Origin: Ilumatobacteraceae bacterium
Lineage (GTDB): Bacteria; Actinomycetota; Acidimicrobiia; Acidimicrobiales; Ilumatobacteraceae
Reading direction: 5' to 3'
DNA: 64,000 bases
Assembly (NCBI GenBank): GCA_035557475.1
Contig: DATMDV010000370.1
Coordinates: 2,336-66,335, forward strand
Every line of letters starts with the position of its first letter. Position 1 is the first letter of the stretch. This document shows, piece after piece, positions 27,500 through 50,909 of this stretch. A program made the position numbers and the translations under genes. The notes beneath the pieces were generated by a model. That model had not been told where the DNA came from. It did not search any database and worked only from the letters and a program-made list of their open reading frames with translations.

Positions 27500-27579
27500 G
27501 CCGTCCCCGCGGTGACCACCCTCGTTCGGGGAGGCGACCGCGCCGCAACGTTAGGCGACGGACGTCGATCCGCCCGCCG

Positions 27580-33905: not shown

Positions 33906-34037
33906 CCGAGCGCAGGGCGTCGCCTTTGCACGCGCGATGCTGCCGCGGGACAATGCCAGCGGGCCGCCGCCGCGGGGCCGAATGTCAGCGGCATGGTCGG
34001 GGAGGAGCGGTCCGACAGGATGAGGCAGGAGGCGGTG

Positions 34038-34916: not shown

Positions 34917-35851
34917 GTCCGATGTCCGAGACACCCGACGCGACCGCGGCCGACGAGCTGCCGGTCGTCGTCCCGGCGAGCACCGGCGACCTGCTGGCAG
35001 TCGTCACCACGCCAACGGGCCCGGCGGCCGGGCTCGCCGCGGTGCTGTTGCGCGGCGCCGGCTGGCGTCCATCGTCGGGCCCGCGACGCACCCAGGTGCG
35101 ATTGGCGCGCCGGCTCGCGGCGGCCGGGGTGCACGGAGTGCGCTTCAGCTACCACGGCGTCGCCGAGAGCGGTGGCCAGAGCGAGGACATCGTCCGCCTC
35201 GACCAGCCGTTCGTGGAGGACGTCGACGCAGTCGCCCGATGGCTCGCCGGGGAGAACCTGCGGCCGGTTCTGGTCGGGAACTGCTTCGGGGCGCGGACGG
35301 CGCTGTCGTTCGCCGCCGGCCAAGCCGGTGACGCCGAGGTCGCCGGTCTGGCGCTGATCGTGCCGCCCGTCCACGACTTCGAAGTCGCCCGCCGGCTCGA
35401 CCGGCGCCCACTCCCCAAGCTCGCCCGGCGGGTGACGCCCACGCGCGCCTGGGCGGTGCTGCGCGATCCGGTCCGGCGACGGGCGATGGGCCGCACGCTC
35501 CGCGCCCTCTCCCACGTCGGCCGCCATCGGGTGCGGGCGGCGCGCGCCGACGATCCGGTGTGGCTGAGCCGCTCGTTCTGTCGCGAGCTCGACGACGTCA
35601 CCGCCCGCGGGATCCCGGTGCTGGTGGTCTACGGCGACGACGACAACTACTTCCGTGACTTCGAGCTCGCCCGCGCCGGCACGCTCGGCGATGTCGTCAC
35701 CCGAGCCGGCACACGGCTGGAGCTCCGTGTCGTGCCGGGGAAGATCCACGGGCTCACCAGCATCGAGACCCAGGAGGCCACGCTCGACGCGGTCGAGGAC
35801 TGGGTCCACGCCACATTGCTGCCGGGCTCGCGTCGCACGGAGCGCGCGTGA
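34913..35851 (+). CDS. alpha/beta-fold protein (hydrolase 2 of a tandem pair); Cys in the nucleophile elbow
   Basis: FSYHGVAESGG and the elbow VLVGNCFGARTAL (G-N-C-F-G). C-terminal VLVVYGDDD ... GKIHGL. GTG 34913 overlaps the upstream stop; ATG 34922 is an alternative. Confidence 0.6.
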   Translation: MSPMSETPDATAADELPVVVPASTGDLLAVVTTPTGPAAGLAAVLLRGAGWRPSSGPRRTQVRLARRLAAAGVHGVRFSYHGVAESGGQSEDIVRLDQPFVEDVDAVARWLAGENLRPVLVGNCFGARTALSFAAGQAGDAEVAGLALIVPPVHDFEVARRLDRRPLPKLARRVTPTRAWAVLRDPVRRRAMGRTLRALSHVGRHRVRAARADDPVWLSRSFCRELDDVTARGIPVLVVYGDDDNYFRDFELARAGTLGDVVTRAGTRLELRVVPGKIHGLTSIETQEATLDAVEDWVHATLLPGSRRTERA

Positions 35852-37011
35852 CGCGGATGCGGGTGATGCACGTCGTCGATTCGCTCGCCGCGTCCGGTGG
35901 CGCCGAACAGCGACTGGTCGAGGAGGCCGAGGCGATCGCCGACCGCTTCGATCAGCGCGTCGTGCGGCTGTACGGGCGCGACGAGCTGCAGCCCCGGCTC
36001 GAGCAGGCGGGCATCCCGGTCATCGCCCTCGGGATGACCGGCCGTCACGCCGGCCGCACCTGGCCCGTGGCGGTGTTGCGGTTGCGTCGGGCGTTGCGCG
36101 AGTGGCGCCCCGACGTCATCCACACGACACTCTTCTCGGCCAACCTCACCGGCCAGCTGGCGGCGCGGACGCTCGGGATCCCGGTCGTGTCGTCGTTCAA
36201 CCGGACCGGTGACATCACCCTCCAACGAACGCTGCAACCAGGTGTGGCCGGCTGGCGCGGGCGTTCGATGCAGGCCATCGCCGGCCGCGCCGCACGGTGT
36301 GGTGACGTGCACTTCCGGGCCGTCAGCGCGTACGCCCGCGACAGCAACTGCGAGCTGTTCGACGTACCGCTCGAGCGGGTCACCGTCGTCCCCCGGGGCA
36401 TCTCGGTCGGCGGCGCACCAGCGGCGGACCGCGCGGCGTTCGGGATCGCCGACGGAATCCCGCTGTTCGTCAACGTCGCTCGGCTCGTACCGGAGAAGGC
36501 GCAGCACCTGCTCGTCGACGCGTTCGCCGAAGTCCGCGACACGCTGCCCGATGCCGAGCTGGCGATCGCCGGCGCGTCGGGTTCGGCGGAACCGACGGTT
36601 CGGGCCGCGATCGCCCGCCACGGTCTCGACGGCGCCGTTCACCTGCTCGGCTGGCGCGACGACGTCCGCTCGCTCGTCGCCGTCGCCGACGTGTTCGTGT
36701 TCAGCTCGCTGTCGGAAGGGTCGCCGAGCGCGGTGCTCGAGGCGATGGTGATCGGAACGCCCGTCGTCGCGTTCGCCATCGCCCCCGTCGTCGAGCTCAC
36801 CGGCGGTCACGCCCGACTGGCGCCCACCGGTGCGCCGGGACTGCTCGCCCACGAGATGCTGGCGGCGTACAACGCTCCTGAACGGACGACCGAGATCGCG
36901 GGCGCGCAGGCGTGGGCCGCGCGGTTCGCGCTGAGCGACGTCGCCCGCCAGCTCGGCGACCTGCTCGAATGGCGAGCCGGTCGTCGGGCGGAACCCGTGC
37001 GGGCGGCATGA
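35848..37011 (+). CDS. GT4 glycosyltransferase
   Basis: MRVMHVVDSLAASGGAEQ N-terminus; VFSSLSEGSPSAVLEAMVIGTPVVA (EX7E). GTGA overlap upstream. Confidence 0.85.
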   Translation: MTRMRVMHVVDSLAASGGAEQRLVEEAEAIADRFDQRVVRLYGRDELQPRLEQAGIPVIALGMTGRHAGRTWPVAVLRLRRALREWRPDVIHTTLFSANLTGQLAARTLGIPVVSSFNRTGDITLQRTLQPGVAGWRGRSMQAIAGRAARCGDVHFRAVSAYARDSNCELFDVPLERVTVVPRGISVGGAPAADRAAFGIADGIPLFVNVARLVPEKAQHLLVDAFAEVRDTLPDAELAIAGASGSAEPTVRAAIARHGLDGAVHLLGWRDDVRSLVAVADVFVFSSLSEGSPSAVLEAMVIGTPVVAFAIAPVVELTGGHARLAPTGAPGLLAHEMLAAYNAPERTTEIAGAQAWAARFALSDVARQLGDLLEWRAGRRAEPVRAA

Positions 37012-37979
37012 GCGTGGCGTCGTCGTTGTTGGAGCGAGGTGTGGCCGTGGTGTCCATCGACACCGAGCTGGCGTGGGGCGAGTCGCACCACCGCGACGGC
37101 ACCGGGCCGCGACGCGACTACTCCTCGGAGCGCGGGGTCATCGACCAGATCCTCGCCGTGTTCGATCGCTACGACATCTCGGCGACGTGGGCCATCGTCG
37201 GCCACCTGTTCCTCGATCAGTGCGCGGCGGTCGAGGGTCTGCCGCATCCCGAGATCGTGCGCCCGGAATCTCCGTCGTCGGGCGGCGACTGGTTCGACAT
37301 CGACCCCTGCTCGACGCTCTCGGCCGACCCCGCGTACTACGGCCGCGACATCGTGGCCGCGATCCGCAGGAGTCGTGTCCCGCACGAGATCGGCTGTCAT
37401 TCGTTCTCGCACCTGATCGCCGACGGCTGCGGCGAAGCCGCGTTCGGATCCGACCTCGCCGCGTGCCAGGCGGTCGCTGCCGCGGAAGGGCTCGACGTGC
37501 GCTCGTTCGTGTACCCCCGCAACGCAATCGCGCACATCGACATGCTGCGCGGGCACGGATTCATCAGCTACCGCGGGTCGGCGGCGGCGTCGGTCAGCTC
37601 GGCCGGGCGCCTCGTCCGCTACGCCGATCGGCTGCGCCCACTGGCCAGGTCGGCCGTGGTGCCGGCCCTTCACCCGAGCGGCGTGTGGAACGTGCCGCAG
37701 ACCTACCTGTTCGCGCCGGCGACCCGCGCCCGCCACGTGCCGGTCGGGCTGTGGGCGCGACGGCCGATCGCCCGGATGCGCCTCGCGACGCGGGAGCGGT
37801 CGCTGTTCCACCTGTGGTTCCACCCGTACAACGTCACGGCCGCGCCCGACCGCGCGTTGCACGGGTTGGAGGCGATCTGCCGGGCCGCGGCCCGTCTGCG
37901 TGATGCGGGCCGGCTCGACATCCTGACGATGGGCGCCCTGGCTGCCCGCCTCGAGGCTGATCGGCCCGACGCCACCTAG
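37008..37979 (+). CDS. polysaccharide deacetylase (CE4-like)
   Basis: ATGA overlap with the GT4 gene. VVSIDTELAWG, ISATWAIVGHLF, IGCHSFSHL (His motifs of the NodB/CE4 type). Confidence 0.7.
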   Translation: MSVASSLLERGVAVVSIDTELAWGESHHRDGTGPRRDYSSERGVIDQILAVFDRYDISATWAIVGHLFLDQCAAVEGLPHPEIVRPESPSSGGDWFDIDPCSTLSADPAYYGRDIVAAIRRSRVPHEIGCHSFSHLIADGCGEAAFGSDLAACQAVAAAEGLDVRSFVYPRNAIAHIDMLRGHGFISYRGSAAASVSSAGRLVRYADRLRPLARSAVVPALHPSGVWNVPQTYLFAPATRARHVPVGLWARRPIARMRLATRERSLFHLWFHPYNVTAAPDRALHGLEAICRAAARLRDAGRLDILTMGALAARLEADRPDAT

Positions 37980-38001: not shown

Positions 38002-38964
38002 TCACCCGCGGTCGAAGACGCGACCGACTCGGCGCCGCACCCGGTGGACCTGCCACCGGCACCAACGGGCGGCGACATCGCGCCGGACCGACGCCGACGG
38101 GCGCCGTTCTTGTCGCTCGTAGCCGTGCTCCTCCAACGCCTCGCCGGCGAGCAGCTCGAAACGAGCCACGTCGACGGCGCTCAGCTCGCGCCGCCAGTCG
38201 CGCATGCCCGGCGTCGGCGGCAACGCGAGTTGACGGTGGTACTCGGGGTGACCCGTCGTGCGCATCACCTCGGCGGCGCGGTCCGAATGATCGAGCATGG
38301 CCGCCGAGAACGGCAGCTCGATGGTCGAGCACATGGCGCGCAGCTGGGTGCCGGGATCCCGCACGAGGTCCTCGTAGCGCAGTTCGAGGTAGCGACCGGC
38401 GGGCAACGCTCGTCCGGCGCGCCGGCCGCGGGTGACGCGGAGTCGCCAGTGCATCGCCGCTTCCTCGATCGAGTCGGCCCAGCCGAGCTCGAGGAACGAG
38501 CACGCCACGTCGCGCCCGTCGCGGACCAGGTGGACGAACACCGCTTCCGGGAACACTCGCGCCAGCTCGCGGATGTGGAGCACGTACACCGGCGTCTTGT
38601 CGGCGTAGCGCGACTTGCCCCGGGCCGACGCCCAGAGCCCGAAGACGTGGCGCACGGCCTGCGGGTAGTCCTGAGGCGGCGACGCCGCGAACGCGGCGGC
38701 GATGACGTCGCGCTCGATCTCCCACAGACGGAACCGCTCGCTTGCCGCGAGTTGGTCGACGAAGGCGCCGGCGTCGAATGGCCGGTTCGCAGCCCGCCCG
38801 CGCGGCGCCAGCTGGACGACGAAGTGCGATTCGGGCGGGACGGCGAGGTCGGGATGACCGTCGCACATCGCGCGCAGCAGCGTGCTGCCGGACCGGCCGC
38901 ACCCGACGATGAACGGGAACGGCGGCCGAGCCGTCGGACCCAGAGCCTCGGACCCCGGCATCAT
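38002..38964 (-). CDS. sulfotransferase, family A, paralog 2
   Basis: PPFPFIVGCGRSGSTLLRAMCDGHPDLAVP; FVHLVRDGRDVACS. Basic tail ...ARWCRWQVHRVRRRVGRVFDRG. Confidence 0.8.
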   Translation of the reverse strand: MMPGSEALGPTARPPFPFIVGCGRSGSTLLRAMCDGHPDLAVPPESHFVVQLAPRGRAANRPFDAGAFVDQLAASERFRLWEIERDVIAAAFAASPPQDYPQAVRHVFGLWASARGKSRYADKTPVYVLHIRELARVFPEAVFVHLVRDGRDVACSFLELGWADSIEEAAMHWRLRVTRGRRAGRALPAGRYLELRYEDLVRDPGTQLRAMCSTIELPFSAAMLDHSDRAAEVMRTTGHPEYHRQLALPPTPGMRDWRRELSAVDVARFELLAGEALEEHGYERQERRPSASVRRDVAARWCRWQVHRVRRRVGRVFDRG

Positions 38965-38977
38965 CAGACCGAAACCA

Positions 38978-40492
38978 TCAAACGAGATACTTGCGCAGGA
39001 TCTTGCCGAGCGGGCTGCGGGGGATCTCGTCGCGGAACTCGACGATGCGCGGCACCTTGAACGCGGCCAACTGCGCCTTGCATGCCGCCAGCAGGTCGCG
39101 GCGAAGAGGTGACTCGTCGGCTTCGGGGTCGTCGCGGACCACCACCGCCTTCACGATCTCCTCGCCGCGGTCGCCCTGCGCGCCGACGACGACGACGTCG
39201 GCGACACCCGGCTGGGCGCGGATGACCGCCTCGACCTCGAACGGGTCGACCTTGAAGCCGCTTGTCGAGATGAACAATTTCGTGCGGCCGGTCACGAACA
39301 GGTTCCCGGCGTCATCGAGGCGGCCGAGGTCGCCGGTGCGGAACCAACCGCCGTCGAACATCTCGTTCGCCGACTCGCCCTCCGCCACGTATCCCGCCGT
39401 GAGGGCATCGCTGCGGAACGTGATCTCTCCCGTCGCACCGCGGGCGTGGCAGACACCGTCGTCGTCGATGACCGCGACGTCGATGCCGCTCATCGGCCGG
39501 CCGACCGAATCCCAGCTGCCCGTCGCATCGTCGTCGAGGTTGATCGTCACCGATCCGGCCTCACTGCATCCGTAGAGCTGCCTGATCGGATGGCCGAAGC
39601 GGTCGTGGAACAGGTCGAACGTCGCCTGCGAGAGCGGCGCGCCGGCCGAGAAGCACAGCCGCAACGTCTGCAGGTCGGCACGCTGGGCGCGCCGGGTCTC
39701 GGCGAGGCTGTGGAAGATGAACGGCACGGCCGGGAACAGTGTGACCCGCTCCTGCTTGATCGCCGCCAGCGTCGCGTCGCGTTCGAACCGGCCGAGCACC
39801 AGCGGAGCTCCGGAATGGATCGCGGCGAGCAACGCGTTGCCCAGGCCGTGGGCGTGGAACAGCGCGACGACGGCGAGGATGACGTCGTCCTCGGTGACGT
39901 CGACGGTCGCCGCGAACTGGTCGGCCTCGGCCGCCAGGTTGCGGTTCGTGCGGATCATGCCCTTGGGCGTGCCGGTGGATCCCGACGAGAACGCGAACAG
40001 CGCCGGCGCGGCGGGGTCGACGGTGACGTCGTGGAATGCCGCGGTGTGTGACGTGGCGTTATCGAACGAGGCGAAGTCCTCGACCCACGGATGGCGCCGA
40101 CCCGGGGCCGTGTACGGCCGATCGCGGAGCACCGGCACGAGATCGGGCTCGGCGACGATCCCGACGACGTCGCAGCCGGCGACCTCGCAGCCGGCCAGGT
40201 GACGGCCGAGCTCCTCGGGCGTGAACAGCGGGTTGAGCGGCACCGCCATCGCGCCGAGCAGCTCGACGGCGAGGAACGTCGTGACGAAGGCGCGGTCGTT
40301 GCCGAGCACGATGGCGACGCCGCTGCCGGGCGTGATGCCGCGAGCCTGCAGCGAGCCCGCCAACTGACGGGCGTCACCGGCGAGCTCATCCCAGGTGCGG
40401 CGCTCGGATCCGTCGACCAGCGCCAGGCGATCGCCGACCCGATCGACCGTCGACGAGAACATCGCCGCCACGGTCGACGGGCGCCCCCTCAC
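38978..40492 (-). CDS. AMP-forming acyl-CoA/acyl-ACP ligase (ANL superfamily)
   Basis: AMP-binding motif FSSGSTGTPKGM, plus YGCSEAG, FRTGDLG and the C-terminal PRSPLGKILRK. Confidence 0.85.
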   Translation of the reverse strand: MRGRPSTVAAMFSSTVDRVGDRLALVDGSERRTWDELAGDARQLAGSLQARGITPGSGVAIVLGNDRAFVTTFLAVELLGAMAVPLNPLFTPEELGRHLAGCEVAGCDVVGIVAEPDLVPVLRDRPYTAPGRRHPWVEDFASFDNATSHTAAFHDVTVDPAAPALFAFSSGSTGTPKGMIRTNRNLAAEADQFAATVDVTEDDVILAVVALFHAHGLGNALLAAIHSGAPLVLGRFERDATLAAIKQERVTLFPAVPFIFHSLAETRRAQRADLQTLRLCFSAGAPLSQATFDLFHDRFGHPIRQLYGCSEAGSVTINLDDDATGSWDSVGRPMSGIDVAVIDDDGVCHARGATGEITFRSDALTAGYVAEGESANEMFDGGWFRTGDLGRLDDAGNLFVTGRTKLFISTSGFKVDPFEVEAVIRAQPGVADVVVVGAQGDRGEEIVKAVVVRDDPEADESPLRRDLLAACKAQLAAFKVPRIVEFRDEIPRSPLGKILRKYLV

Positions 40493-40746
40493 GATGCGCG
40501 CCGCCCGGCGATGTAGCTGCTCATCGATCCGAGGCTGCCGAAGTTCTCGATCGTGATCTCGCGATCGGGCACGTCGATGCCGAACGCCTCCTCGATGCCG
40601 ATCACGACGCTGAGCAGCGCTGCCGAGTCGAGACCGAGGTCGAGGAGCGACGCTCCCTCGTCGACCCTCACACCGGCGTCGAGCTGGAGTCGCTCGGCAA
40701 GGAGCGCCCGCAGCCGGTCGTCGATGTCAGCATGCTCACCGTCCAC
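40489..40746 (-). CDS. acyl carrier protein
   Basis: 85 aa. LLDLGLDSAALLSVVIGIEEAFGI contains the phosphopantetheine-attachment Ser in a DS motif. 4-nt overlap with the ligase gene. Confidence 0.8.
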   Translation of the reverse strand: MDGEHADIDDRLRALLAERLQLDAGVRVDEGASLLDLGLDSAALLSVVIGIEEAFGIDVPDREITIENFGSLGSMSSYIAGRRAS

Positions 40747-40910
40747 GTCCGCCCCTCCGCGATCGATCCTACGCCGAGCCGAGCATCGATGCGGTTTGGG
40801 TCGAGATTCTCCGCGTGGGGCGCGGAAGTCCTCGACGCAAGCGGCGTGGGGCAGACTCGCGGCAGCCCGGTAGCGCTGGGACGGGCGCTTTCGATCAGGC
40901 TGTCGGCGCC

Positions 40911-41765
40911 ATGACGATGCTCGACGCAGTGCGGACCCGGGTCCCGATGGACGTCCGGCATCGCATCGCGCAATTGCGGGTGCGGGCGCGGGTTCCGACC
41001 GGCAGATGGCGACGCCTGCCTGACCTGCTGGTGATCGGCGGCCAACGGTGCGGGACGAGCACGCTGTACCGCCACCTCGGACGGCACCCCGACGTCGCGC
41101 CGTCGCTGCGCAAGGAGGTCGAGTACTTCAGCCGTCGGTACGACCGCGGCGAGCGCTGGTATCGGGCCCATTTCGCGCTCGAAGCGCAACGTCACCGGCT
41201 GTGCTTCGAGGCGACGCCCGACTACCTGTTCCATCCGCTGGCCGCGGCGCGGGCGGCCACCGTCGTGCCCGAGGCGCGGCTCGTCGTGATGCTCCGCGAT
41301 CCGGTCGTCAGGGCGTGGTCGCACTATCACCACATGGTGGGGCTCGGTCACGAGGACCTCGAGTTCGACGCCGCCGTCGAGGCCGAGCAGGGCCGCAGTG
41401 CCGGCGATCTCGCCCGGCTGGCCGACGACCCGTTGCACGACCCGGTCGCGCTGCTGCGGTACTCGTACGTGGCGCGCGGCCGCTACGCCGAGCAGCTTTC
41501 GCGATGGTTCGAGCAGTTCCCCCGCGAACAGCTGCTCGTCGTGCGCAGCGAGGACCTCTTCGCCGATCCGCGAGCCTCGTTCCGCCGGATCCTCGACTTC
41601 GCCGGGCTGCCGCCGTGGGAGCCCGACACCTTCACCAACGTCAGCCGGCCGAGCGGTGAGCGGCCGCCGCCCATCCCATCCGCCTCCCGCGACCGCCTGA
41701 CGGAAATGTTCGAGCTCCCGAACCTCGAGCTCGCCAAGCTGCTCGGCGAAACCCCGAGCTCGTGA
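40911..41765 (+). CDS. sulfotransferase, family B, paralog 1 (heparan-sulfate sulfotransferase-like)
   Basis: LLVIGGQRCGTSTLYRHLGRHPDV, KEVEYFSRRYDRGERWYRAHF, VVMLRDPVVRAWSHY. This pattern resembles animal HS N-/3-O-sulfotransferase domains. Confidence 0.8.
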   Translation: MTMLDAVRTRVPMDVRHRIAQLRVRARVPTGRWRRLPDLLVIGGQRCGTSTLYRHLGRHPDVAPSLRKEVEYFSRRYDRGERWYRAHFALEAQRHRLCFEATPDYLFHPLAAARAATVVPEARLVVMLRDPVVRAWSHYHHMVGLGHEDLEFDAAVEAEQGRSAGDLARLADDPLHDPVALLRYSYVARGRYAEQLSRWFEQFPREQLLVVRSEDLFADPRASFRRILDFAGLPPWEPDTFTNVSRPSGERPPPIPSASRDRLTEMFELPNLELAKLLGETPSS

Positions 41766-41799
41766 AGTTTCGGTGTCCCTAGGACGCCGAAACTTCACG
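41761..41799. terminator. long perfect hairpin between convergent genes (bidirectional terminator candidate)
   Basis: CGTGAAGTTTCGG (41761-41773) pairs with CCGAAACTTCACG (41787-41799). An inner GTCC-CTA-GGAC extends the stem. The TGA of the upstream gene lies inside the 5' arm. Confidence 0.65.
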
Positions 41800-41810
41800 G
41801 GATGGCTTTG

Positions 41811-43952
41811 TCAGGTGTCGGTGGAGACCGCGTTCCATTCGGGGCGGGGGTCGCCCTGCTGGTCGCCGGGGCGGACGGTGTAGGTGGTGGTCCCGTTGAT
41901 GACGCGCAGAACGGTCTCCTCCGCCACGTCGTCGACCAGCCAGAACTCGTTGCCGGCGAACGTGCAGTTGACGAAGTCGTACAGCTGCGGATGGTCGCCG
42001 CCGTCCGGCAGCCCGATCTGGGCCACCGTGCCGCCCTGGAACGTCGAGTCGGAGATCTCGGTGACCCGTCCACCTCGGGCGAGGTGTTTCGTCACGTGCA
42101 CCGCGAAGTCGGACAGACCGGCCTGGTCGACGTACATGCGGGTGTAGGTGATCGTCTCGTCGGAGGCCTGGCCCGCCTTCGCCGGAAGGGCCGAGATCAC
42201 CACCCCGACGTTCTCGCAGGCATAGACGGTGCAGTCGTGGTACGAGACGAGGTTGGCGTACGAGCCGGCGAAGATGCCCTGACCGCAGTGATAGGCCGTG
42301 AACCCGTCGACGAGCGTGCGCGGCTTGCCGTTCTGCCAGAAGTAGATGCCGCTGTGGCGGACGTTGTGGGCCATGTTGCCCTCGAACGCCCACGTGTTGT
42401 CATCGCGCGACAGCGACGGCCAGTTGTAGCCCGCCGACGACTCCGCGCCACCCTCCACGCCGGTCGCCACGCATCCCCTGGCGATGTTGCCGTCGCCGGC
42501 GCCCATCATGAACCCGCAGAGGTTGAACTTGCTGTTGCCACCACTCTTCACGAAGCTGGCGACGCACCGCTCGTAGACGATGTTGTGCGACGGAACCAGG
42601 TCGCGTCCGCCGCCGTCGAGGCTGAGGTCCCACCAGAACGCGTCGTCGACCATGTCGTGGGCGATGCAGTCGCGGAACGTGACGCCGTTGGACAGGTGCG
42701 ACGCGAACCCGTGACCCGTCGAGTCGTACACGGAGACACCGTCGAGGAGCGATCCGCGCGAGCCGTCGTAGCCGGCATGGAAGTGGATCGCGTACCGGCC
42801 GAGGACCTCGTCCTCGCCCTTTCTCGGGCCCATGTTGCGCAGCCCGATGTGAGAGATCTGCTGCGCCGTGGTCGTCGACAGCATGATGAGGTGCGCCTTG
42901 CCACCTGGTGTCCCACCGATGACGACGTTGCGGCTGATGTTGAGGACCTCGGCCCGGTGGGTGACGCCGGGACGGACCGTCGCGGCCGGGTGGGGGAAGT
43001 CGAGTGGACGGTCGAGGCCGATCCGCGCGCCGGAGACGGACGTGACCGTGCGACGATCGTGATGCTCCCAGTGGTTGTCGACGGTGGTCGATTCGGTCGG
43101 GGTGATCACGACCTCGTCGCCGACCCGCCAGCCGGCGGCCGCGTCGACATCGATCGTCGAGTCGCCCTTGTTCGCCGCCCCGCTCAGGTTGGTCCACGCG
43201 GTCTTGGGCGTGCCATGGGCGTCGAGCACGCCGGCGGCGACCACCCACAGCCCGACGTCCGTGGCGAGCGGCTCAGCCGAGTGACCGCCGACGAAGCGAC
43301 TTTCGTCGACCTCGATGAACTCGATCTGGTGGAGGATCTGCGCCGAGGACGGGCGCAGCGTCAACTGCCCGGCCACCACCACGTTGCCTCGCGAAGCGAG
43401 CTTCCGACTGCTGGCCGGGTCGAACGTCAGCGAACCGTTTGGTCCGATGTGCACGCCGCCGACCGTGGCGTCGATGTCGAGCAACACGGGCCGGTCGATC
43501 ATCGCCGTGTCCGTCGCGCCGGGGACGCTGCCGCCCCAGGTCGCCGGGTCGCTCCAGTTCACGGCCGTCGGGTCGCCACCCGGCGGTGGTGTCGTCGTCT
43601 CGACCGGAACCGTGGTTTCGGTCCCTTCGTGGTGCCCAGTCGTCGTCGTGGCAGGGGCAGTCGTCGTGGTCGCCGTCGGCTGGGTCGTCGACGGCTGGGT
43701 CGTCGTGGTCTTGTCCGGCTTGCGGTCGCGCTCGCGTTCCTCTTTCGGAGGCTTGGTGTTGTCGGGTTCGTTCGCTCCCGACCGGCGCCCGGACCGGCCC
43801 GCCCCGGACTCCGCGTCGTCGCCGATCGTTCGCGTCACCTGCCACCCCAGCAGGGCGAGGCCACCGAAGCCGGCGATCGCGATCACCTCGCGGCGCGGGT
43901 AGGACCGCTTCGTCGGCTCACGGTCGTCGGGAACGGGGGGCGTCTCTGCCAT
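41811..43952 (-). CDS. membrane-anchored G8-domain / right-handed beta-helix protein (CEMIP/TMEM2-like candidate polysaccharide depolymerase or modifier)
   Basis: - N-terminal TM anchor: VIAIAGFGGLALLGW.
- Thr/Pro-rich linker: TTTTQPSTTQPTATTTTAPATTTT.
- G8-like segment: VNWSDPATWGGSVPGATDTAMIDRPVLLDIDATVGGVHIGPNGSLTF.
- LGRYAIHFH motif.
- Multiple beta-helix-like repeats. Confidence 0.65.
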   Translation of the reverse strand: MAETPPVPDDREPTKRSYPRREVIAIAGFGGLALLGWQVTRTIGDDAESGAGRSGRRSGANEPDNTKPPKEERERDRKPDKTTTTQPSTTQPTATTTTAPATTTTGHHEGTETTVPVETTTPPPGGDPTAVNWSDPATWGGSVPGATDTAMIDRPVLLDIDATVGGVHIGPNGSLTFDPASSRKLASRGNVVVAGQLTLRPSSAQILHQIEFIEVDESRFVGGHSAEPLATDVGLWVVAAGVLDAHGTPKTAWTNLSGAANKGDSTIDVDAAAGWRVGDEVVITPTESTTVDNHWEHHDRRTVTSVSGARIGLDRPLDFPHPAATVRPGVTHRAEVLNISRNVVIGGTPGGKAHLIMLSTTTAQQISHIGLRNMGPRKGEDEVLGRYAIHFHAGYDGSRGSLLDGVSVYDSTGHGFASHLSNGVTFRDCIAHDMVDDAFWWDLSLDGGGRDLVPSHNIVYERCVASFVKSGGNSKFNLCGFMMGAGDGNIARGCVATGVEGGAESSAGYNWPSLSRDDNTWAFEGNMAHNVRHSGIYFWQNGKPRTLVDGFTAYHCGQGIFAGSYANLVSYHDCTVYACENVGVVISALPAKAGQASDETITYTRMYVDQAGLSDFAVHVTKHLARGGRVTEISDSTFQGGTVAQIGLPDGGDHPQLYDFVNCTFAGNEFWLVDDVAEETVLRVINGTTTYTVRPGDQQGDPRPEWNAVSTDT

Positions 43953-44124
43953 TGCTGAACCTCAGTCCTTACGGCCCCGTTACACCGTCGCAGCGGCCCG
44001 GCTGAACGTATCGGGCGGATCCTGGAAAACCGCAGAAAGCGGTCGAGTAGTCACTAAACCGATTCGACACCGACACCGAGCCGACACGGAAAACACGCCC
44101 CCTTCGAACGATTTCAACTGCCCC

Positions 44125-45120
44125 CTAGAACAATTCCACATCACCGAGGCCGAGGTGCCATCGCCCCGGGTCCGGGATCGTCATCAGACCGAGGTCGCGG
44201 CACACGAGGATCGGTCCCCGACCGACGAGCGGCACGAACCCGGCCCGCGGCAGGTGGTCACCGAGCCGGACGGCATAGTCGGCCCCGGTGGCCTTCAAGA
44301 CCTGGCGGAGGAGCCGCCGGGTCACGCTTGGGTCGCCGCCGGGGACGAGCTCCTCGCACACCGCGGCCTCGACCGCCGGACCGCGCCGCCGCAACCGGAA
44401 CACGGCGAGGCCGCCGCCCGGGCCATCGATCGTGAGCGCCCGGTACCCGAGCGGTTCGAACCCGTACCGCCAGGTGAGGTACGCCGCCGACCTGTTCGTC
44501 CTCAACCCCGCTCGCGGCCCCGACTCGGGGCGCGTCTCGAGCAGCGCCGCTACTGCGCCGGCGTCGGTGAACGCCTCGACAGCGGGGACGCCGACGGTGC
44601 TCGGCACCGACCACTTGTCGGCAGCGGTCCGGGCGCGTGCGATCCGGCCGAGCGCCCGCAGCGAGCCTGGCCGAGCGAGCACGGCCAGGCGCCGCACCGG
44701 CTGCCATCCCATTGCCAGGTAACCCGGCCGGCTGCGCTCGTTGGGCGTGTTGAACACGAATGCCACGCCATCGTCGCGCAGCACGTCGAGGGCGTGGCGC
44801 GTCAGACCGGCGAACACGCCCTGGCCGCGATGGTCGGGATGGGTGGCGGTGTCGACCGCCCGCACCGCCGTGACGACCCTCCCGTCGACGAGGAACTCCC
44901 AGCGCATGAACGTGCGGAAGCCGACGACCCGGTCGGCGACGGTGGCGACCCATGCGGGCGAGGCGCCGAACGGACTCTCGTGGTGTTTCCAGGCGAAGAG
45001 GCGGGCGTGCAGTGCGTCGGGGTGCCAACCGAGCGACGACCCGAGCAACTCCAGCACGACGGCCTCGTCGGTGGGTTCGTAGCGACGCACGTCGAACTCG
45101 GCGACGCTCGAGCCGGTCAT
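44125..45120 (-). CDS. GNAT-family acetyltransferase with an extra C-terminal domain
   Basis: Starts MTGSSVAEFDVRRYEP. Acetyl-CoA motif HPDHRGQGVFAGL. The track ORF (741 aa) was trimmed to the last 331 codons. Confidence 0.7.
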   Translation of the reverse strand: MTGSSVAEFDVRRYEPTDEAVVLELLGSSLGWHPDALHARLFAWKHHESPFGASPAWVATVADRVVGFRTFMRWEFLVDGRVVTAVRAVDTATHPDHRGQGVFAGLTRHALDVLRDDGVAFVFNTPNERSRPGYLAMGWQPVRRLAVLARPGSLRALGRIARARTAADKWSVPSTVGVPAVEAFTDAGAVAALLETRPESGPRAGLRTNRSAAYLTWRYGFEPLGYRALTIDGPGGGLAVFRLRRRGPAVEAAVCEELVPGGDPSVTRRLLRQVLKATGADYAVRLGDHLPRAGFVPLVGRGPILVCRDLGLMTIPDPGRWHLGLGDVELF

Positions 45121-46127
45121 CGGCGGCCGACCTGACGGGCGACGACCCGAGCGCCGGCCGCCACCTGCACCCACGAGCGGGAAGCGCCGTCGGCGGCGAC
45201 CCGGCACCGCGCGGTCGCTCGCCGGCGCACCGACGGTGGCGGTGCGTCGCATCCATAGCCCAACTCGTCGAGCAAGCCGCCGGCGACGGCCTCGAAGCGG
45301 GCGACGTCGGCGGCGGTCATCTCCCGGCGCCAGTCGCGCAGGCCGGGCGTCGGCGGGAGCAGCAGCCGGCTGTGGGCATCGGGAAAGCGGGTCGCGGCGA
45401 TCACGTCGGCGGCCCGCTCGTGGTGGTGCAGCACGCCGTCGTCCCAGCCCAGCTCGAGGAACCCGCACAGCTCCCGCAGGACGCGTTCGGGCTCGGCGAC
45501 GAGCGCTTCGTAGCGGACCTCGCGATAACGATCGGAGCCCAGACGCTCGCCCTCGCGCCGACCACGCACCACGCTGCGGCGCCACCGCACGGCGGCGTCC
45601 TCGACCGTCGTCGGGCCCCAGCCGACGCTCCGGTACGACATCGCGACGTCGCGGCCGTCGCGGATGACGTGCACGAAGCGGGCCTCGGGGAACAACCGGC
45701 CGAGGCGGCGCAGGTGCAGCACGTGCATCGGCGTCTTGTCGGCGTAGCGGGCCTTGCCCCGTCGTGCTGCGGCGAGGGCGTAGAGCTGGCGGATGGCGTC
45801 GGCGAACGACGTCGGGACGGCGTCGGTGAGGGCGGCGCGGGCTTCGGCTTCGGTGATCGGCCAGCGGCGGAACGACGGGTCGGCCACGATCAGGTCGGCG
45901 CACCGCGAGGCATCGAAGTGGCGCGGCCAGCCGTACTGCAACGCGTAGTGCGGCCGGGCGTAGCGGATGATGAACGCCACCTCGTCGGGGACGGCGACAT
46001 CGCGGTGGGCGTCGAACATCGCCCGCAACAGGGTGGTCCCCGACCGTCCGCAGCCGACGAAGAACGGGAACGGTGGGCGGTCCGATCCAACCGACGGCGC
46101 ACCCCCCGTCGTCGTCGGCCCAGTCAT
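45117..46127 (-). CDS. sulfotransferase, family A, paralog 3
   Basis: PPFPFFVGCGRSGTTLLRAMFDAHRDVAVP; FVHVIRDGRDVAMS. Basic tail. 4-nt overlaps on both sides. Confidence 0.8.
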   Translation of the reverse strand: MTGPTTTGGAPSVGSDRPPFPFFVGCGRSGTTLLRAMFDAHRDVAVPDEVAFIIRYARPHYALQYGWPRHFDASRCADLIVADPSFRRWPITEAEARAALTDAVPTSFADAIRQLYALAAARRGKARYADKTPMHVLHLRRLGRLFPEARFVHVIRDGRDVAMSYRSVGWGPTTVEDAAVRWRRSVVRGRREGERLGSDRYREVRYEALVAEPERVLRELCGFLELGWDDGVLHHHERAADVIAATRFPDAHSRLLLPPTPGLRDWRREMTAADVARFEAVAGGLLDELGYGCDAPPPSVRRRATARCRVAADGASRSWVQVAAGARVVARQVGRR

Positions 46128-47146
46128 CGGCCGGTCGGGCCCTGAGCCGATCGCTTGGCCCGGCGTCGCAGCGGCGCGAGCAGCCGGTGACGGCGCACGC
46201 TGGCGACCGGTCCCCGCTCGTACCAGCCGCGGCCCTCGACCGCGCGCAGCAGACGCCGGGCCAGTGGCGGCTCGGGCAACTCCGTGTAGTCGAGCGCGCC
46301 GTGCGCGGCCCGCTCGCGGTTGAAGGCGTCGATGAGCGGGTTGAGGGCACCGTTGCGTGACCGGTAGACGAAGCCCGCGGCGTCCATCTCGTTGTGGTAG
46401 TGCAGGACGAACGGTGGTGTGACCTCGTGGGCGAACAGGGGATGCACGGTCACCGTCGTCGACAGGTTGGCGGCCACGGGCAGCCGCACCACGGGGATGT
46501 CGTCGCCGGCCACCGCGAGCGCGAGCGACAGCTGGTTCGTCCAGTGGCGCTCCTTGGCCGGCACGATGTCGGGTCGACTCTCGTAGACGTCGAGGACGTC
46601 GAAGATCCGCTTCGTCCAGCTCTCGCGCAGCTGGTCACAGCGGTCGCGGGGAACGGCGATGACCCCACTGTTGTAGTAGGGGTAGGTGACCTGCGCCGTG
46701 CTCGTCATCACCGCCGAGCGGCTCGGCTCGGGGATGGCCAGCACCGCGAACAGCTCGCGCCAGCACTGCGGCGGGTACGGGTCGCGGTTCTCGGGCTTGA
46801 TCGCCACCGCCTCGGTGTGGGCATAGCAACTGATGTCGCCGACGACGATCGTGTCGGTGTCGAGCGCGAGGAGGACGTCGAATTGGTGGGTGTCGATGAG
46901 CTCGAGCATGCGGAGCTTGTTGCTCGCGGGCGTCCGGCGGTCGAATCGCGGGACGACGCGGACCTCGGCGTCGAGCTCGGCGAGCCCGGCCTCATACCTG
47001 GCGTCGACGCCGTCGACGAAGTTGACGACGAAGGGCGCGCTGCTGAGCCCGCCCCCGAACCGGCGCACCGAGAGCACCAGGTTGTACGCCTCCTGGTACC
47101 ACCGGTCCCCGTTCTCCGCGACACAAGACACGAGTAACCCGCCCAC
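46124..47146 (-). CDS. GT-A fold glycosyltransferase (GT8-like)
   Basis: LLALDTDTIVVGD (DxD motif) and YYNSGVIAV. GTG start. Confidence 0.6.
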   Translation of the reverse strand: MGGLLVSCVAENGDRWYQEAYNLVLSVRRFGGGLSSAPFVVNFVDGVDARYEAGLAELDAEVRVVPRFDRRTPASNKLRMLELIDTHQFDVLLALDTDTIVVGDISCYAHTEAVAIKPENRDPYPPQCWRELFAVLAIPEPSRSAVMTSTAQVTYPYYNSGVIAVPRDRCDQLRESWTKRIFDVLDVYESRPDIVPAKERHWTNQLSLALAVAGDDIPVVRLPVAANLSTTVTVHPLFAHEVTPPFVLHYHNEMDAAGFVYRSRNGALNPLIDAFNRERAAHGALDYTELPEPPLARRLLRAVEGRGWYERGPVASVRRHRLLAPLRRRAKRSAQGPTGR

Positions 47147-47200: not shown

Positions 47201-48037
47201 GTGATGGCGGGAGCACGCGTGGCATCGCAGGCGGCGGTGAAGGCGACGTCCGTGCTGGCCGACCAGGTGTGGCGACCACCGCGAGGCGTCGTGATCGTGC
47301 TGTACCACCGCGTCGGTGCACGGACGCCGACAGCCGTCGACCTTCCGGCGCCATTGTTCGACGAGCAGATGGCGTGGCTCGCGTCGCGCGGCCTCCAGAT
47401 CAGCATCGATGACGCCCTGTCATCGCTCGCCGGCCCCGTCCCGTCCGATGCCCCGTCCGATCCGGGCCCGGTCGTGGTCACGTTCGACGACGGCACGGCC
47501 GACCTGGTGGAGGTCGCGCTGCCGATCCTGTCTCAACACCGCATCCCGGCCGTGTTCTACCTGGCGACCGACTTCATCGAGCGCTCCCGGCCGTTCCCGA
47601 ACGACGGGGTCCCCCTCTCGTGGGCGGCCGTGCGCGAGGCCGTGTCGACCGGTCTCGTGACCATCGGTTCGCACACCGACACCCACGCCCTGCTCGATCG
47701 CGTCGACCCCGCCACCGCGGCCGCCGAGTTGGATCGGTCGCGAACCCTCATCGAGGACAACGTCGGCGTGACGCCGCTCGACTTCGCGTACCCGAAAGCG
47801 GTCGCCGGGACGGCCGAGGTCGAGGCGCTCGTCCGGGCCCGGTTCCGGTCGGCCGCGGTGGGTGGATGCCGGCCCAACCCCTACGGGCGCGCCGATCTCC
47901 ACCGCCTCACCCGATCGGCGATCCAGGTCAACGACGGCATGCGCTACTTCGAGCGCAAGGCACGTGGCGGCATGGCCCTCGAGGATCGATTGCGGCGGAT
48001 CGTCAACCGACGCCGGTACGCGAACGCCGTGACCTGA
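47201..48037 (+). CDS. polysaccharide deacetylase (CE4)
   Basis: VVVTFDDGTADL (TFDDG motif), AVFYLATDF, IGSHTDTHALL. Confidence 0.8.
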   Translation: MMAGARVASQAAVKATSVLADQVWRPPRGVVIVLYHRVGARTPTAVDLPAPLFDEQMAWLASRGLQISIDDALSSLAGPVPSDAPSDPGPVVVTFDDGTADLVEVALPILSQHRIPAVFYLATDFIERSRPFPNDGVPLSWAAVREAVSTGLVTIGSHTDTHALLDRVDPATAAAELDRSRTLIEDNVGVTPLDFAYPKAVAGTAEVEALVRARFRSAAVGGCRPNPYGRADLHRLTRSAIQVNDGMRYFERKARGGMALEDRLRRIVNRRRYANAVT

Positions 48038-48039: not shown

Positions 48040-48063
48040 CGCGTCTGATTGAGTCGGCTCACT
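48040..48063. repeat. copy 2 of the 24-nt motif CG(T/C)GTCTGATTGAGTC(A/G)GCTCACT
   Basis: See 16848-16871. This copy fills the 21-nt gap between convergent stops and includes the TGA of the GT4 gene. Confidence 0.6.
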
Positions 48064-49264
48064 CCACGCTGCGTCGCTGACCGGCTGGTCGCCGACTGTG
48101 GCGCCACCAGCGGCGGCGCGTCGCGGCACGGCGATAGGTGTCGAGCACCGTCTCGACGATGCGGCGTTCGTCGAAGTTGGCCCGCGCCCTGGCGACGGCG
48201 GCGACGCCCATCGCCACCCGGCGCGCCTCGTCCTCACCGAGGGCATGGATGGCCGCGGCGAGGGCGATCGGCGCCCGCAGCGGCACGAGGATCCCGGTCA
48301 CGCCGTCGTCGACGACCTGACGGCACCCGCGGATGTCGGTCGCCACGGTCGCCAGCCCCGATGACGCCGCCTCCATCGCCGCCCGTGGGAAGCCCTCGCG
48401 ATGCGAGGGCAACACGAACACGTCCATGCCTCGGTACAGCAGGTCGATGTCGTCGCGCAGCCCGAGGAACCGGACGCCCGCATCCGTTCCCACCTGCACC
48501 TGCTCGGTCGTGAGGGCGTCCGGCTTGTCGGGATCGTGGGGCCCGATCACGACCACGAGGTACCGGTCGCCGAGGGCCCTGGCGGCCTCGATCAGCTCGA
48601 GGTGTCCCTTCTCGGCGACGAGCCGTCCGACGGTGCCGACCACCACCTGGTCGGGAGCGGCCCCGAGCTCGGCGCGCGCCCTCGCCCGCTCGCCGGCGTC
48701 GATCGCCGGACGGAAGCGCTCGAGCGCGACGCCGTTGCCGAGCAGGAACGTGCGCCGCGGCGAGTTCAACCGCCACCGCACGAGGAGCGCGAGATCCTCG
48801 GGGTTCTGGATGAGCTCGGCGTCGGAGAAACGGGCGGCGATGCCCTCGAGGGCGAGCACGACGGCCCGCCGTACCCGCTGACCGTCGCCGATGTAGAGAC
48901 CGTGGTTCGTGTTCACCACCACTGGTACCCCGGCGAGCCGGGCGACGACACGGCCATACACGCCCGGCTTCGGGTTGTGGGTGTGGACGACGTCGAAGTG
49001 CTCCGACCGCAGGATTCGCCACAGATCGAACGCGGCCCGCAGGTCGGCGCCCACGTCCCACCCACGTGTCGACGATGTCAGAGCGATGTGACGGACGCCG
49101 TCGCGTTCGAGCGCCTCGACCCAGGGTCCCGGGGCGCTGATCCCGACGACCTCACCGCCCTCGTGGAGCACGGCCAGCAGTTGCGGGCGCAGGAGGTACC
49201 ACAATGTCGAGTCGACGGTGGTGACGTGGGCGACCCGGATCGGGGCCGCGGGCGCAACGCTCAC
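48059..49264 (-). CDS. GT4 glycosyltransferase
   Basis: The GTG start overlaps the ATP-grasp stop (GTGA). IRVAHVTTVDSTLWYLL N-terminus; VLPSHREGFPRAAMEAASSGLATVAT (EX7E). Confidence 0.85.
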   Translation of the reverse strand: MSVAPAAPIRVAHVTTVDSTLWYLLRPQLLAVLHEGGEVVGISAPGPWVEALERDGVRHIALTSSTRGWDVGADLRAAFDLWRILRSEHFDVVHTHNPKPGVYGRVVARLAGVPVVVNTNHGLYIGDGQRVRRAVVLALEGIAARFSDAELIQNPEDLALLVRWRLNSPRRTFLLGNGVALERFRPAIDAGERARARAELGAAPDQVVVGTVGRLVAEKGHLELIEAARALGDRYLVVVIGPHDPDKPDALTTEQVQVGTDAGVRFLGLRDDIDLLYRGMDVFVLPSHREGFPRAAMEAASSGLATVATDIRGCRQVVDDGVTGILVPLRAPIALAAAIHALGEDEARRVAMGVAAVARARANFDERRIVETVLDTYRRAATRRRWWRHSRRPAGQRRSVE

Positions 49265-50244
49265 GTCGTGGCCCGGTCGTCGGCTACGAAGACGGCCGCG
49301 TCGTAGCGCAGCATCACGACGCCGGCGCGCCATCCGTCGGCGCTGGCCGTCGACGGGAGGCCGACCAGGTCCTCGAGGATCCAGCGCGGGAAGTCCGCCC
49401 CCGCCTCGCGCGACAGCGGGAATCCCCCGCCGAAGCGGGCGTTGAGCTCGATGATCGCCAGCTGGTCGGTTCGGTCGTCGACGAACACCTGGATCGTGAG
49501 CGCGCCGAACGGATCGGGCAGCGCGTCGCACACCTCCACCGCCAGCTGCTCGAGCGACGCCGAGCGAACCGTCACTGCCTTGGCCACCTCGCCGGCACGC
49601 ACCTCGAGGCGCCGTCGGGGAACGGCGCAGACGCGCGCACCAGCCCGATCGACGAGGACGTCGATCGTGTACTCAGTGCCGGCCGCAACCGTCTCGACGA
49701 CGACGTCGCCGACTCGCGCCGCGACCTCGAGCTCCGTCGTGTCGCTGACGATGGTCACCCCATGGGCGGCACTGCCGAATCGCGGCTTGACCACGAGCGG
49801 GAACGGCCATGCGTCCGGATCGTCGCGGACGCTCGCCAACGTCGTCTGGCGGACGGTTGGAAGATCGTTCGCCACGAGCCACTCGTGGGTCGCCACCTTG
49901 TCGGCCGCGATGGCGACGACGGCGGGCGCCGACACTGCCACGGTCGTCCCGACGGCAGCCAGCTCGGAGCTGGCGGCCGCCAACACCGGCAGCTCGGGAT
50001 CGATCGTCGGCACGACGAGGTCGACCTGTTGGTCGACGCACAGCTCTACCATGCGCGGGACGAACGCTCGGTCCGTGCACGCCGGCACCTCGAAGCCGGC
50101 GTCGGCGCTGTGCCGCGCGCTGGAGTACCACGACCGGTCGGTGGCGATGACCCGACCGTTGAGGTCGAGGTCGTGCAACGCCTCGCGGAAGCTCCGCAAC
50201 AGCTCGACGCGCCGCCCGGCCGACGACACCAAGACGGTGGTCAT
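49261..50244 (-). CDS. ATP-grasp domain enzyme (carboxylate-amine ligase type)
   Basis: MTTVLVSSAGRRVELLRSF, PLVVKPRFGSAAHGV, IIELNARFGGGFP. ATGA overlap with the sugar transferase gene. Confidence 0.75.
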   Translation of the reverse strand: MTTVLVSSAGRRVELLRSFREALHDLDLNGRVIATDRSWYSSARHSADAGFEVPACTDRAFVPRMVELCVDQQVDLVVPTIDPELPVLAAASSELAAVGTTVAVSAPAVVAIAADKVATHEWLVANDLPTVRQTTLASVRDDPDAWPFPLVVKPRFGSAAHGVTIVSDTTELEVAARVGDVVVETVAAGTEYTIDVLVDRAGARVCAVPRRRLEVRAGEVAKAVTVRSASLEQLAVEVCDALPDPFGALTIQVFVDDRTDQLAIIELNARFGGGFPLSREAGADFPRWILEDLVGLPSTASADGWRAGVVMLRYDAAVFVADDRATT

Positions 50245-50909
50245 TCGCGCCGGGCGGGGAGCTGGGTCATGGTTGCGTGACCTGCTCCCGAGATCCCGCT
50301 GCGCCGCACGACCACCGGGACCGTCCTGGCGAGGATCCGTGCGTCGAGGGCGAGCGAGCGGTGGTCGACGTACCACGCATCGAGCTCGAGCCGGGCGTCC
50401 CACCCGATCGCGTTGCGGCCGTTGATCTGTGCCCAGCCGGTGATGCCGGGGCGGACGGCCAGCCGCCGGCGCTGACGATCGGTGTACCGCTCGACGTAGC
50501 GGACCGGCAGCGGTCGTGGCCCCACGACGGCCATGTCGCCGCGGACGACGTTGACGAGTGAAGGGAGCTCGTCGATGCTCGTCGACCGCAGGAACCGACC
50601 GAGCGGCGTGATGCGGGCGCCGTCGTGGTCGGGGGCCGTCTCTCCCGCACGTAGCGGGCGCATCGTGCGCAGCTTGAGCAGCTCGAAGGGCTCACCATCG
50701 CGACCCGCGCGGGCGTGCCGGAACAGGACCGGACGGCCCATCTTGACCCTGATCGCGAGCGCCGCCGCAGCGAGCACCGGTGCGGCAAACGCGAGGGCGG
50801 CCAAGGCGATCACCACGTCGAGTAGGCGCCGAACCGCGCGGCTCGTTCGTCCCTCGATTCGCCCGTTCGTGCGCCCGGCCCCCGACGACTGAACCTTCCA
50901 GCCCGCCAC
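50241..50909 (-). CDS. small polyprenyl-phosphate sugar-1-phosphate transferase (PglC/WbaP-C type, bacterial sugar transferase family)
   Basis: One N-terminal hairpin helix (VVIALAALAFAAPVLAAAALAI), then GRPVLFRHARAGRDGEPFELLKLRTM, DELPSLVNVVRGDMAVVGPRP and RPGITGWAQINGRN. Confidence 0.85.
   Translation of the reverse strand: MAGWKVQSSGAGRTNGRIEGRTSRAVRRLLDVVIALAALAFAAPVLAAAALAIRVKMGRPVLFRHARAGRDGEPFELLKLRTMRPLRAGETAPDHDGARITPLGRFLRSTSIDELPSLVNVVRGDMAVVGPRPLPVRYVERYTDRQRRRLAVRPGITGWAQINGRNAIGWDARLELDAWYVDHRSLALDARILARTVPVVVRRSGISGAGHATMTQLPARRE

Follow-up and report, generated by a model that had tools for sequence, protein, structure and literature searches.

A predicted Tat-exported G8/β-helix protein in a sulfated-polysaccharide locus of an Ilumatobacteraceae bacterium: a candidate enzyme for an exported surface polymer

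What does a protein sharing its core with vertebrate TMEM2 and CEMIP do inside a bacterial gene cluster for a sulfated polysaccharide? The question is raised by a 64,000-nucleotide (nt) stretch of an Ilumatobacteraceae genome (assembly GCA_035557475.1, contig DATMDV010000370.1, positions 2,336 to 66,335; hereafter the window), in which a minus-strand gene (41811..43952, ATG start) encodes a protein of 713 amino acids (aa), here called the G8 protein. A first-pass annotation of the window had proposed that it is an extracytoplasmic CEMIP/TMEM2-type enzyme that trims or depolymerises the product of the neighbouring genes. The cluster context, the predicted extracellular location, the glycan-cleaving structural neighbours and a polar face that is invariant irrespective of genomic context led us to propose, with a probability of about 0.45, that the G8 protein is a surface-tethered enzyme acting on the backbone of the exported polymer, and probably cutting it, by means of a conserved Arg/Tyr/His face.

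The folded part of the protein was modelled with AlphaFold2 from a 51-sequence alignment, which gave an all-β structure with a predicted template modelling score (pTM) of 0.81 and a predicted local distance difference test (pLDDT) above 90 for most of residues 130–713. The G8 domain (aa 130–257; 43182..43565, minus strand as for all parts of the gene) forms the first turns of a β-helix and reads NWSDPATWGG...LLDIDATVGGVHIGPNGSLTF, in which W133, W139, and P144 are invariant among the 51 homologues used throughout for conservation (40–86% identity). The Pfam G8 model (PF10162) was not reported in a scan with the whole protein, but it matched the isolated segment of aa 125–263 over its full profile (1–124/124; E 4.3e-7, 30.3 bits against a cut-off of 22.9), and the whole-protein result is thus a false negative. 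The same model matches 35 of the 51 homologues. A small β-sandwich (aa 258–340; 42933..43181) containing W275-x-x-G-D-E-VVITPT and AEVLNISRN is inserted next, and it aligns to TMEM2 chain residues 338–410. It is followed by the right-handed parallel β-helix core (aa 341–605; 42138..42932), for which DSSP assignment of the model gave regular three-strand turns and the whole-protein Pfam scan gave PF24606 (CEMIP_beta-hel; aa 353–441, 34.6 bits, cut-off 27.3) and PF13229 (Beta_helix; aa 519–602, 34.3 bits, above its cut-off). The strand GRYAIHFH (aa 385–392; 42777..42800) lies at the centre of the conserved Arg/Tyr/His face. A β-sandwich-like cap with long antiparallel strands in the model (aa 606–713; 41814..42137) completes the structure; the C-terminal 114 aa had no Pfam match at E ≤ 10, and G700, W706, and N707 of the cap are invariant. 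The G8 pattern, the LGRYAIHFH motif and the β-helix repeats noticed in the first-pass annotation are therefore all present.

A Foldseek search of the PDB with the model returned the TMEM2 ectodomain first (8C6I; E 6.6e-18, TMq 0.58) and the Klebsiella phage K1 capsule lyase second (4e-12), with other phage capsule and O-antigen depolymerases within 1e-12 to 1e-8. Further matches were GH110, GH87, the fucoidan lyase FdlA, the Vibrio polysaccharide (VPS) lyase RbmB, AlgE epimerases, and the adhesin PfbA, so that the modelled fold has, TMEM2 apart, mostly glycan-cleaving enzymes as its neighbours, together with the AlgE epimerases and one adhesin. At the sequence level, TMEM2 was the sole PDB match (E 5e-8 when the protein was searched alone, 9.1e-20 for the family profile). 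The profile search at E ≤ 10 found nothing else and thus no sequence bridge to a characterised glycoside hydrolase (GH), polysaccharide lyase (PL), or epimerase. The phage depolymerases, exemplified by the K1 lyase (7W1C), share the right-handed β-helix, act on acidic surface polysaccharides and use catalytic residue types (Tyr, His, and Arg) that occur among the invariant residues of the G8 protein. They differ in having no detectable sequence similarity, low TM-scores (~0.3), and a trimeric tailspike organisation without the G8 signature. A GH28-like set of motifs (GHG and DD) was considered and discarded, as its order along the helix is wrong.

The likeness to TMEM2 extends to the arrangement of the domains. 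In the TMEM2 structure, the G8 domain is the start of a continuous helix, and a small β-sandwich is inserted after three helix turns (PMC10206443). Our profile alignment covers TMEM2 chain residues 61–166, which are the G8 turns, and 338–530, which are the small sandwich and the CEMIP-type helix. The two proteins share W-x-x-GD, H321, AEV-x-x-x-RN, H354, GRY-x-x-HFH (GRYPVHFH in TMEM2), and H419, and both are anchored N-terminally with most of their mass outside the cell, a location that is predicted for the G8 protein. On these sequence and model comparisons we regard the homology to the G8/β-helix core of TMEM2/CEMIP as real. The differences are also considerable. The G8 protein is about half the size of TMEM2, with 13% identity over the structural alignment, and it has a twin-arginine translocation (Tat) signal and a Thr/Pro linker. 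The lectin-like (PANDER-like) GG-1 domain, an insertion in the helix of the family proper, is lacking, since only 6 positions of the bacterial profile span the step between TMEM2 residues 166 and 338 in the alignment, leaving TMEM2 residues ~167–337 unmatched. The large C-terminal sandwich and GG-2 are lacking as well (~270 residues follow the motif, compared with ~770 in TMEM2), and the whole-protein Pfam scan detected no GG domains and nothing other than the β-helix models. H432 and W440-W441, which are invariant among the bacterial proteins, are not kept in TMEM2. The CEMIP/TMEM2 architecture assigned in the first-pass annotation thus holds for the core but not for the two GG/lectin-like domains and the large sandwich. 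Two features that define the architecture of the CEMIP/TMEM2 family proper are missing from the protein, which belongs, by a full-length match of G8, sandwich, and β-helix, to the broad prokaryotic family of "G8 domain-containing proteins".

The enzymatic function of the G8 protein cannot be transferred from these relatives by homology, because TMEM2 has no assigned active site, its activity is disputed and the functionally mapped residues lie in the absent GG-1. No active site was assignable in the TMEM2 structure, and the human ectodomain had no measurable hyaluronidase activity (PMC10206443); a second study likewise describes human TMEM2 as non-catalytic (PMC10276149), whereas a mouse-based study argues for an intrinsic activity (PMC10474455). 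Residues implicated in hyaluronan degradation, namely R187 of CEMIP and R265, D273, D286, H248, and A303 of TMEM2, are all in GG-1 (PMC10206443, PMC12423501), and our literature search found no mapped active site for CEMIP or TMEM2. Both TMEM2 (CEMIP2) and CEMIP (HYBID, KIAA1199) are needed for the breakdown of hyaluronan in vertebrates; hyaluronan depolymerisation by these proteins themselves, which had been taken as established, is contested. In any case, the native substrate of the G8 protein is certainly not vertebrate hyaluronan.

The N-terminal membrane anchor recognised earlier is indeed a hydrophobic stretch, but it carries a conserved twin-arginine motif. The segment of aa 18–42 (YPRREVIAIAGFGGLALLGWQVTRT; 43827..43901) contains R20 and R21, which are conserved in at least 90% of the homologues, and 47 of the 51 have within their first 60 aa an arginine pair plus a hydrophobic motif, such as FTRRQVLTMAGAGG or LSRRRFLTIAGA. 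The hydrophobic stretch of the homologues is often trailed by a basic residue and then acidic ones. The Pfam TAT_signal model matches just one of the 51. Judging from the sequence, the anchor is a conserved Tat signal, predicting export by the Tat route and, in agreement with the first-pass annotation, an extracytoplasmic location. The signal probably stays uncleaved as an anchor, because no AxA cleavage site is visible. In two homologues (P0053 and P0088), the anchor-like signal is replaced by a Tat signal ending in a lipobox cysteine (..VTGC..), which would imply lipid anchoring of the same ectodomain. The signal is followed by a disordered Thr/Pro/Ser-rich linker (aa 43–129; 43566..43826), also previously noticed; Thr, Pro, and Ser make up 44% of a 93-aa linker region that includes TTTTQPSTTQPTATTTTAPATTTT, and residues 1–123 were modelled as disordered (pLDDT below 50). 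An NCBIfam match to GltJ over the linker was discarded as low-complexity.

The ectodomain has a dense set of invariant polar residues that would suit a catalytic site. Among 58 invariant columns are seven histidines (H321, H354, H390, H392, H419, H432, and H529) together with G385, R341, R386, Y387, D232, D279, E280, D299, E335, D442, C429, and N530. Nearly all invariant positions are kept in stand-alone Kitasatospora and Planctomycete homologues, including H354, H419, H432, D442, and the residues of GRYAIHFH. In the model, H354, H390/H392, and H419 are on equivalent strands of consecutive turns, and H390 and H392 should point outwards, because the flanking I389 and F391 are hydrophobic. The Arg/Tyr/His face is a candidate active site. 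TMEM2 retains W275, D279, H321, E335, R341, N342, H354, GRY, H390, H392, and H419; E280, invariant in the bacterial proteins, is Gln in TMEM2, and N342, invariant in the 51 homologues and common to TMEM2, is Ser in Kitasatospora. A wider proposal, which we consider unlikely, is that the whole G8/CEMIP β-helix superfamily has inherited this face from its ancestor as a self-sufficient active site. Such a site might be metal-assisted, in view of the seven invariant histidines, the one cysteine, and the Tat export of a pre-folded protein.

Two known active sites provide leads for the chemistry, each drawn by analogy. The K1 lyase has a metal-independent catalytic set of Tyr, His, and Arg (PMC8822698), and AlgE uses Tyr149, Asp152, His154, and Asp178 (PMC7385640). 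The AlgE spacing (i, i+3, i+5, and about one turn further) is that of Y387, H390, H392, and H419, although the residues differ. This coincidence raises the possibility that the G8 protein is a polymer-level C5-epimerase, converting uronic acids without chain cleavage as AlgG and AlgE do. These mannuronan epimerases are also β-helix enzymes that act on an exported polymer, AlgE7-type enzymes both epimerise and lyse from one site, and a UDP-sugar dehydrogenase is encoded in the locus. The A-modules of AlgE4 and AlgE6 are among the Foldseek matches (E 3e-4 to 1e-3), but these are weak matches, far below TMEM2 and the phage depolymerases in the ranking, and no sequence-level link exists. In addition, the spacing match rests on sequence rather than on superposed strands, the G8 protein has H390 in place of Asp and no DPH(D/E) motif, and the stand-alone Kitasatospora homologues have no uronate genes nearby. 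We therefore regard epimerisation as quite unlikely.

The invariant surface also has to be weighed against a role in binding rather than catalysis. The G8 protein may be a non-catalytic, polysaccharide-binding surface protein, a tether or scaffold by which the exported polymer is kept or ordered at the cell surface or guided across the wall. Such a role would be in line with the lack of detectable activity in the human TMEM2 ectodomain (PMC10206443, PMC10276149), with the presence of the pneumococcal β-helix adhesin PfbA among the structural neighbours and with a membrane or lipid tether followed by a long spacer; the Ig-like, PKD, and Fn3 domains fused to some family members fit adhesins too. 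Against this, His, Asp, Glu, Tyr, and Arg are densely represented among the invariant positions and maintained across contexts and phyla, as is more usual for catalytic or metal centres than for a lectin surface that has to track variable polymers, and the structural neighbours closest after TMEM2 are nearly all enzymes. A purely binding function thus appears unlikely to us.

The distribution of the family shows which parts of the genomic context are conserved. We found 510 relatives among GTDB species representatives, and a 50%-identity sequence library contained 1,163 clusters at E ≤ 1e-30 and 4,659 at E ≤ 1e-10; of the best 150 among the 1,163 clusters, almost every one covers the greater part of the core (profile positions ~80–668). 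The family also occurs in Planctomycetota and in one proteobacterial metagenome-assembled genome (MAG). Long members add PKD, Fn3, Big_7, or CarboxypepD_reg modules but no second catalytic domain, and such additions, being typical of secreted glycan-active enzymes, support the enzyme reading. Loci at 60% identity or more (Ilumatobacteraceae, other Acidimicrobiales, and Jiangellaceae) always have many sulfotransferases around the G8 gene, along with the same GNAT acyltransferase, AMP-ligase, deacetylase, GT4 glycosyltransferase, and one conserved unknown protein. At about 50% identity, the GNAT, GT4s, deacetylases, priming transferase, and ATP-grasp protein are kept while the sulfotransferases are mostly lost, and at about 40% identity the clusters have either ABC-2 or Wzx/Wzy export. 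A tie of the G8 protein to sulfation was ruled out by the absence of sulfotransferases around most of the ~50%-identity homologues. Co-occurrence of the UDP-sugar dehydrogenase was uninformative, since the flanks of the homologous loci extend 10 kb and the two genes are ~17 kb apart in the window.

The closest partner of the G8 gene is the GNAT gene (44125-45120, minus strand; Acetyltransf_9, 331 aa) immediately upstream. It is upstream and co-directional in 25 of the 25 GNAT-positive loci of the clade of at least 50% identity, and directly adjacent in 21 of them (the loci for this pairing were L007-L031, L040, L043, and L053). The GNAT was also found in L001, L002, and L004, and the two genes abut or overlap in some loci (L004). 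We conclude that the conserved genomic partner of the G8 gene is a surface-polysaccharide pathway plus the adjacent GNAT, not sulfation. The GNAT itself, a cytoplasmic acyltransferase paired with a predicted exported β-helix protein, had no informative PDB or NCBIfam match.

In nearly all of the actinobacterial loci examined outside Streptomycetaceae, the G8 gene is inside a surface-polysaccharide cluster (exceptions include L045 and L046). In 27 Streptomycetaceae genomes, however, it is a stand-alone, core-genome gene; Kitasatospora and its relatives (L051-L085, e.g. L059 9602-11992) have it in synteny in cultured strains. Its neighbours there are a peptidoglycan hydrolase of the Rpf-like transglycosylase/NlpC-P60/LysM type and a sugar-uptake/α-amylase operon. 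These surroundings, the occurrence of the family in Planctomycetota and the proteobacterial MAG, and the invariant residues that do not change from one genomic context to another would fit an enzyme whose substrate is another glycan, for instance a glycopolymer of the cell wall or a foreign or environmental polysaccharide, the position in the polysaccharide cluster being secondary. We consider this rather improbable. In Acidimicrobiia and Jiangellaceae, the gene stays in polysaccharide clusters beside the same GNAT over 50–85% identity, and it persists while the sulfotransferases, the exporter type (ABC-2 or Wzx/Wzy), and other genes vary. We also ruled out the Kitasatospora neighbours as a functional clue, as the whole 20-kb region is syntenic genus-wide; this synteny reflects vertical inheritance at the genus level and says little about function.

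The surroundings of the gene in the window agree with the sulfated-polysaccharide locus described in the first-pass annotation. At least eight sulfotransferases are encoded (32026-33018, 33015-34934, 38002-38964, 40815-41765, 45117-46127, 50958-51842, ~51900-52714, and 53618-54625), together with CysD/CysN (54684-56878), GT4 glycosyltransferases (26360-27550, 27580-28722, 35848-37011, and 48059-49531), two polysaccharide deacetylases (36912-37979 and 47201-48037), a priming transferase (50241-50909), an ATP-grasp protein (49261-50403), a UDP-sugar dehydrogenase (23633-24961), and an ABC-2 exporter (28887-30900). The presence of the UDP-sugar dehydrogenase makes uronic acids in the polymer plausible.

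These components allow a tentative course of events for the G8 protein to be drawn. The protein would be exported by the Tat route and retained at the surface by its uncleaved signal, and the ~90-residue Thr/Pro spacer would raise it off the membrane. Its folded part would then present one continuous right-handed β-helix made up of the G8 turns, the inserted sandwich, the CEMIP-type helix, and the C-terminal cap. The polymer of the surrounding cluster would be sulfated in the cytoplasm and exported via the ABC-2 transporter. Sulfotransferases that depend on 3′-phosphoadenosine-5′-phosphosulfate act in the cytoplasm, and the G8 protein would therefore meet the polymer only after sulfation and export, acting on its backbone. 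The chain may bind along the helix face bearing R341, H354, R386, Y387, H390, H392, H419, H432, and D442, where it could be cleaved by β-elimination at a uronic acid or by hydrolysis. The surface layer would thereby be released, trimmed, or remodelled. Chain-length control, which had also been suggested, is the least likely of the proposed roles, because in ABC-transporter-dependent pathways the length is normally set in the cytoplasm before export.

Precedents for such an arrangement are AlgL, PslG, PelA, BcsZ, and RbmB, extracytoplasmic enzymes that are each encoded inside the cluster of the polymer they process. The G8 protein resembles them in being cluster-encoded and, by prediction, outside the cytoplasm, and RbmB (PDB 9OZL) also shares the β-helix fold with it (Foldseek E 1e-3). 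They are members of unrelated families, and their activity on their own polymer is demonstrated, whereas that of the G8 protein is proposed here from context and homology.

Several points weigh against the proposal of a polymer-cleaving enzyme. The grouping of the invariant residues into one surface groove is deduced from strand periodicity alone, and the surface they form could equally well be a binding site. Pfam and NCBIfam scans at E ≤ 1 found no established GH or PL family motif (pectate lyase, GH28, etc.). CEMIP and TMEM2, the sole characterised relatives, are themselves disputed as enzymes, and their functionally mapped residues are in the GG-1 domain that the G8 protein does not have; a characterised bacterial G8 protein was not found in the literature. 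The Kitasatospora homologues are core-genome and stand-alone, and therefore the basic substrate of the family need not be the product of a cluster. The extracytoplasmic polymer-processing enzyme put forward in the first-pass annotation is accordingly upheld as regards homology, predicted export, and locus context, but its function is not inherited from TMEM2/CEMIP and sulfation is not its conserved context.

The gene itself is well defined. A GC content of 0.90 at third codon positions, in a window of ~70% GC, gives the 713-aa frame a coding signature. The antisense 718-aa frame (41802-43958, plus strand) has the wrong codon-position GC pattern and was ruled out as a high-GC shadow of the true frame. 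An identical (100%) MAG protein is deposited at NCBI under the name "G8 domain-containing protein [Ilumatobacteraceae bacterium]" (P0001). The previously noted gap upstream is a 172-nt spacer (43953..44124, minus strand) with a GAGG ribosome-binding site at 43960-43963, 7 nt ahead of the ATG, and a weak terminator-like site at 44096-44110, directly past the GNAT gene. The strong hairpin noted downstream is located at 41761..41799, between the G8 gene and the convergent sulfotransferase gene (40815-41765, plus strand), whose stop codon it overlaps. It has a perfect 13-bp stem (CGTGAAGTTTCGG / CCGAAACTTCACG) and a predicted energy of −25 kcal/mol (z = −5.3), and none of 200 shuffled sequences folded equally well. 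No T-run is present, and a simple terminator scan did not call the hairpin; it is likely a bidirectional transcript-end structure that could end both the G8 and the sulfotransferase transcripts.

Other genes of the window provide hints about the polymer. An AMP-dependent ligase (38978-40492, minus strand) is followed by a carrier protein of 85 aa that bears a GLDS motif (40489-40746, minus strand). The pair (38978-40746) is DltA/DltC-like and syntenic in a Jiangellaceae locus (L001), suggesting that the polymer is decorated with acyl or aminoacyl groups. The two deacetylases are co-located with the sulfotransferases, CysD, and CysN; by analogy with heparan sulfate, the polymer could undergo N-deacetylation followed by N-sulfation. 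Neither Pfam nor NCBIfam matched two further conserved proteins. One (46124-47146, minus strand) accompanies the G8 gene in the sulfotransferase-rich clade only, and the other (24969-26360, minus strand) occurs mainly in the non-sulfated clades. Towards the end of the window, a 1,916-aa protein (56892-62642, minus strand) combines DUF7379/α-β-hydrolase, LCAT-like, CHAT protease, and TPR-S regions and adjoins an ArsR-type helix-turn-helix regulator (62659-63294, minus strand). This pair (56892-63294) may have no connection with the polysaccharide locus and serve as a conflict or signalling system.

The single gene is an ordinary member of a very large, uncharacterised, and automatically annotated family; the deposited protein was already named for its G8 domain, and a domain-level kinship with CEMIP/TMEM2 was implicit in Pfam. 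What goes beyond the annotation is the core architecture without GG domains, the twin-arginine signal, the pairing of GNAT and G8 genes as a module, a link to sulfation that proves optional, and the invariant face that is partly common to TMEM2. If the face were the ancestral active site of the superfamily, it would reveal a catalytic centre not found in CEMIP and TMEM2 and a new polysaccharide-cleaving or epimerising family, and the bacterial core-only proteins would be its first members with a definable cognate substrate. The findings thereby bear on a question in hyaluronan biology, namely whether the β-helix of CEMIP and TMEM2 itself catalyses, and where. The bacterial family is abundant, keeps the helix residues shared with TMEM2, and drops the lectin domains, offering a tractable route to the function of the CEMIP-type helix; the cultured Kitasatospora carriers are convenient experimental hosts, and the Acidimicrobiia clusters specify a candidate substrate. 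For uncultured Acidimicrobiia, the G8 protein represents a candidate enzyme for the remodelling or release of their sulfated, acidic surface polymers.

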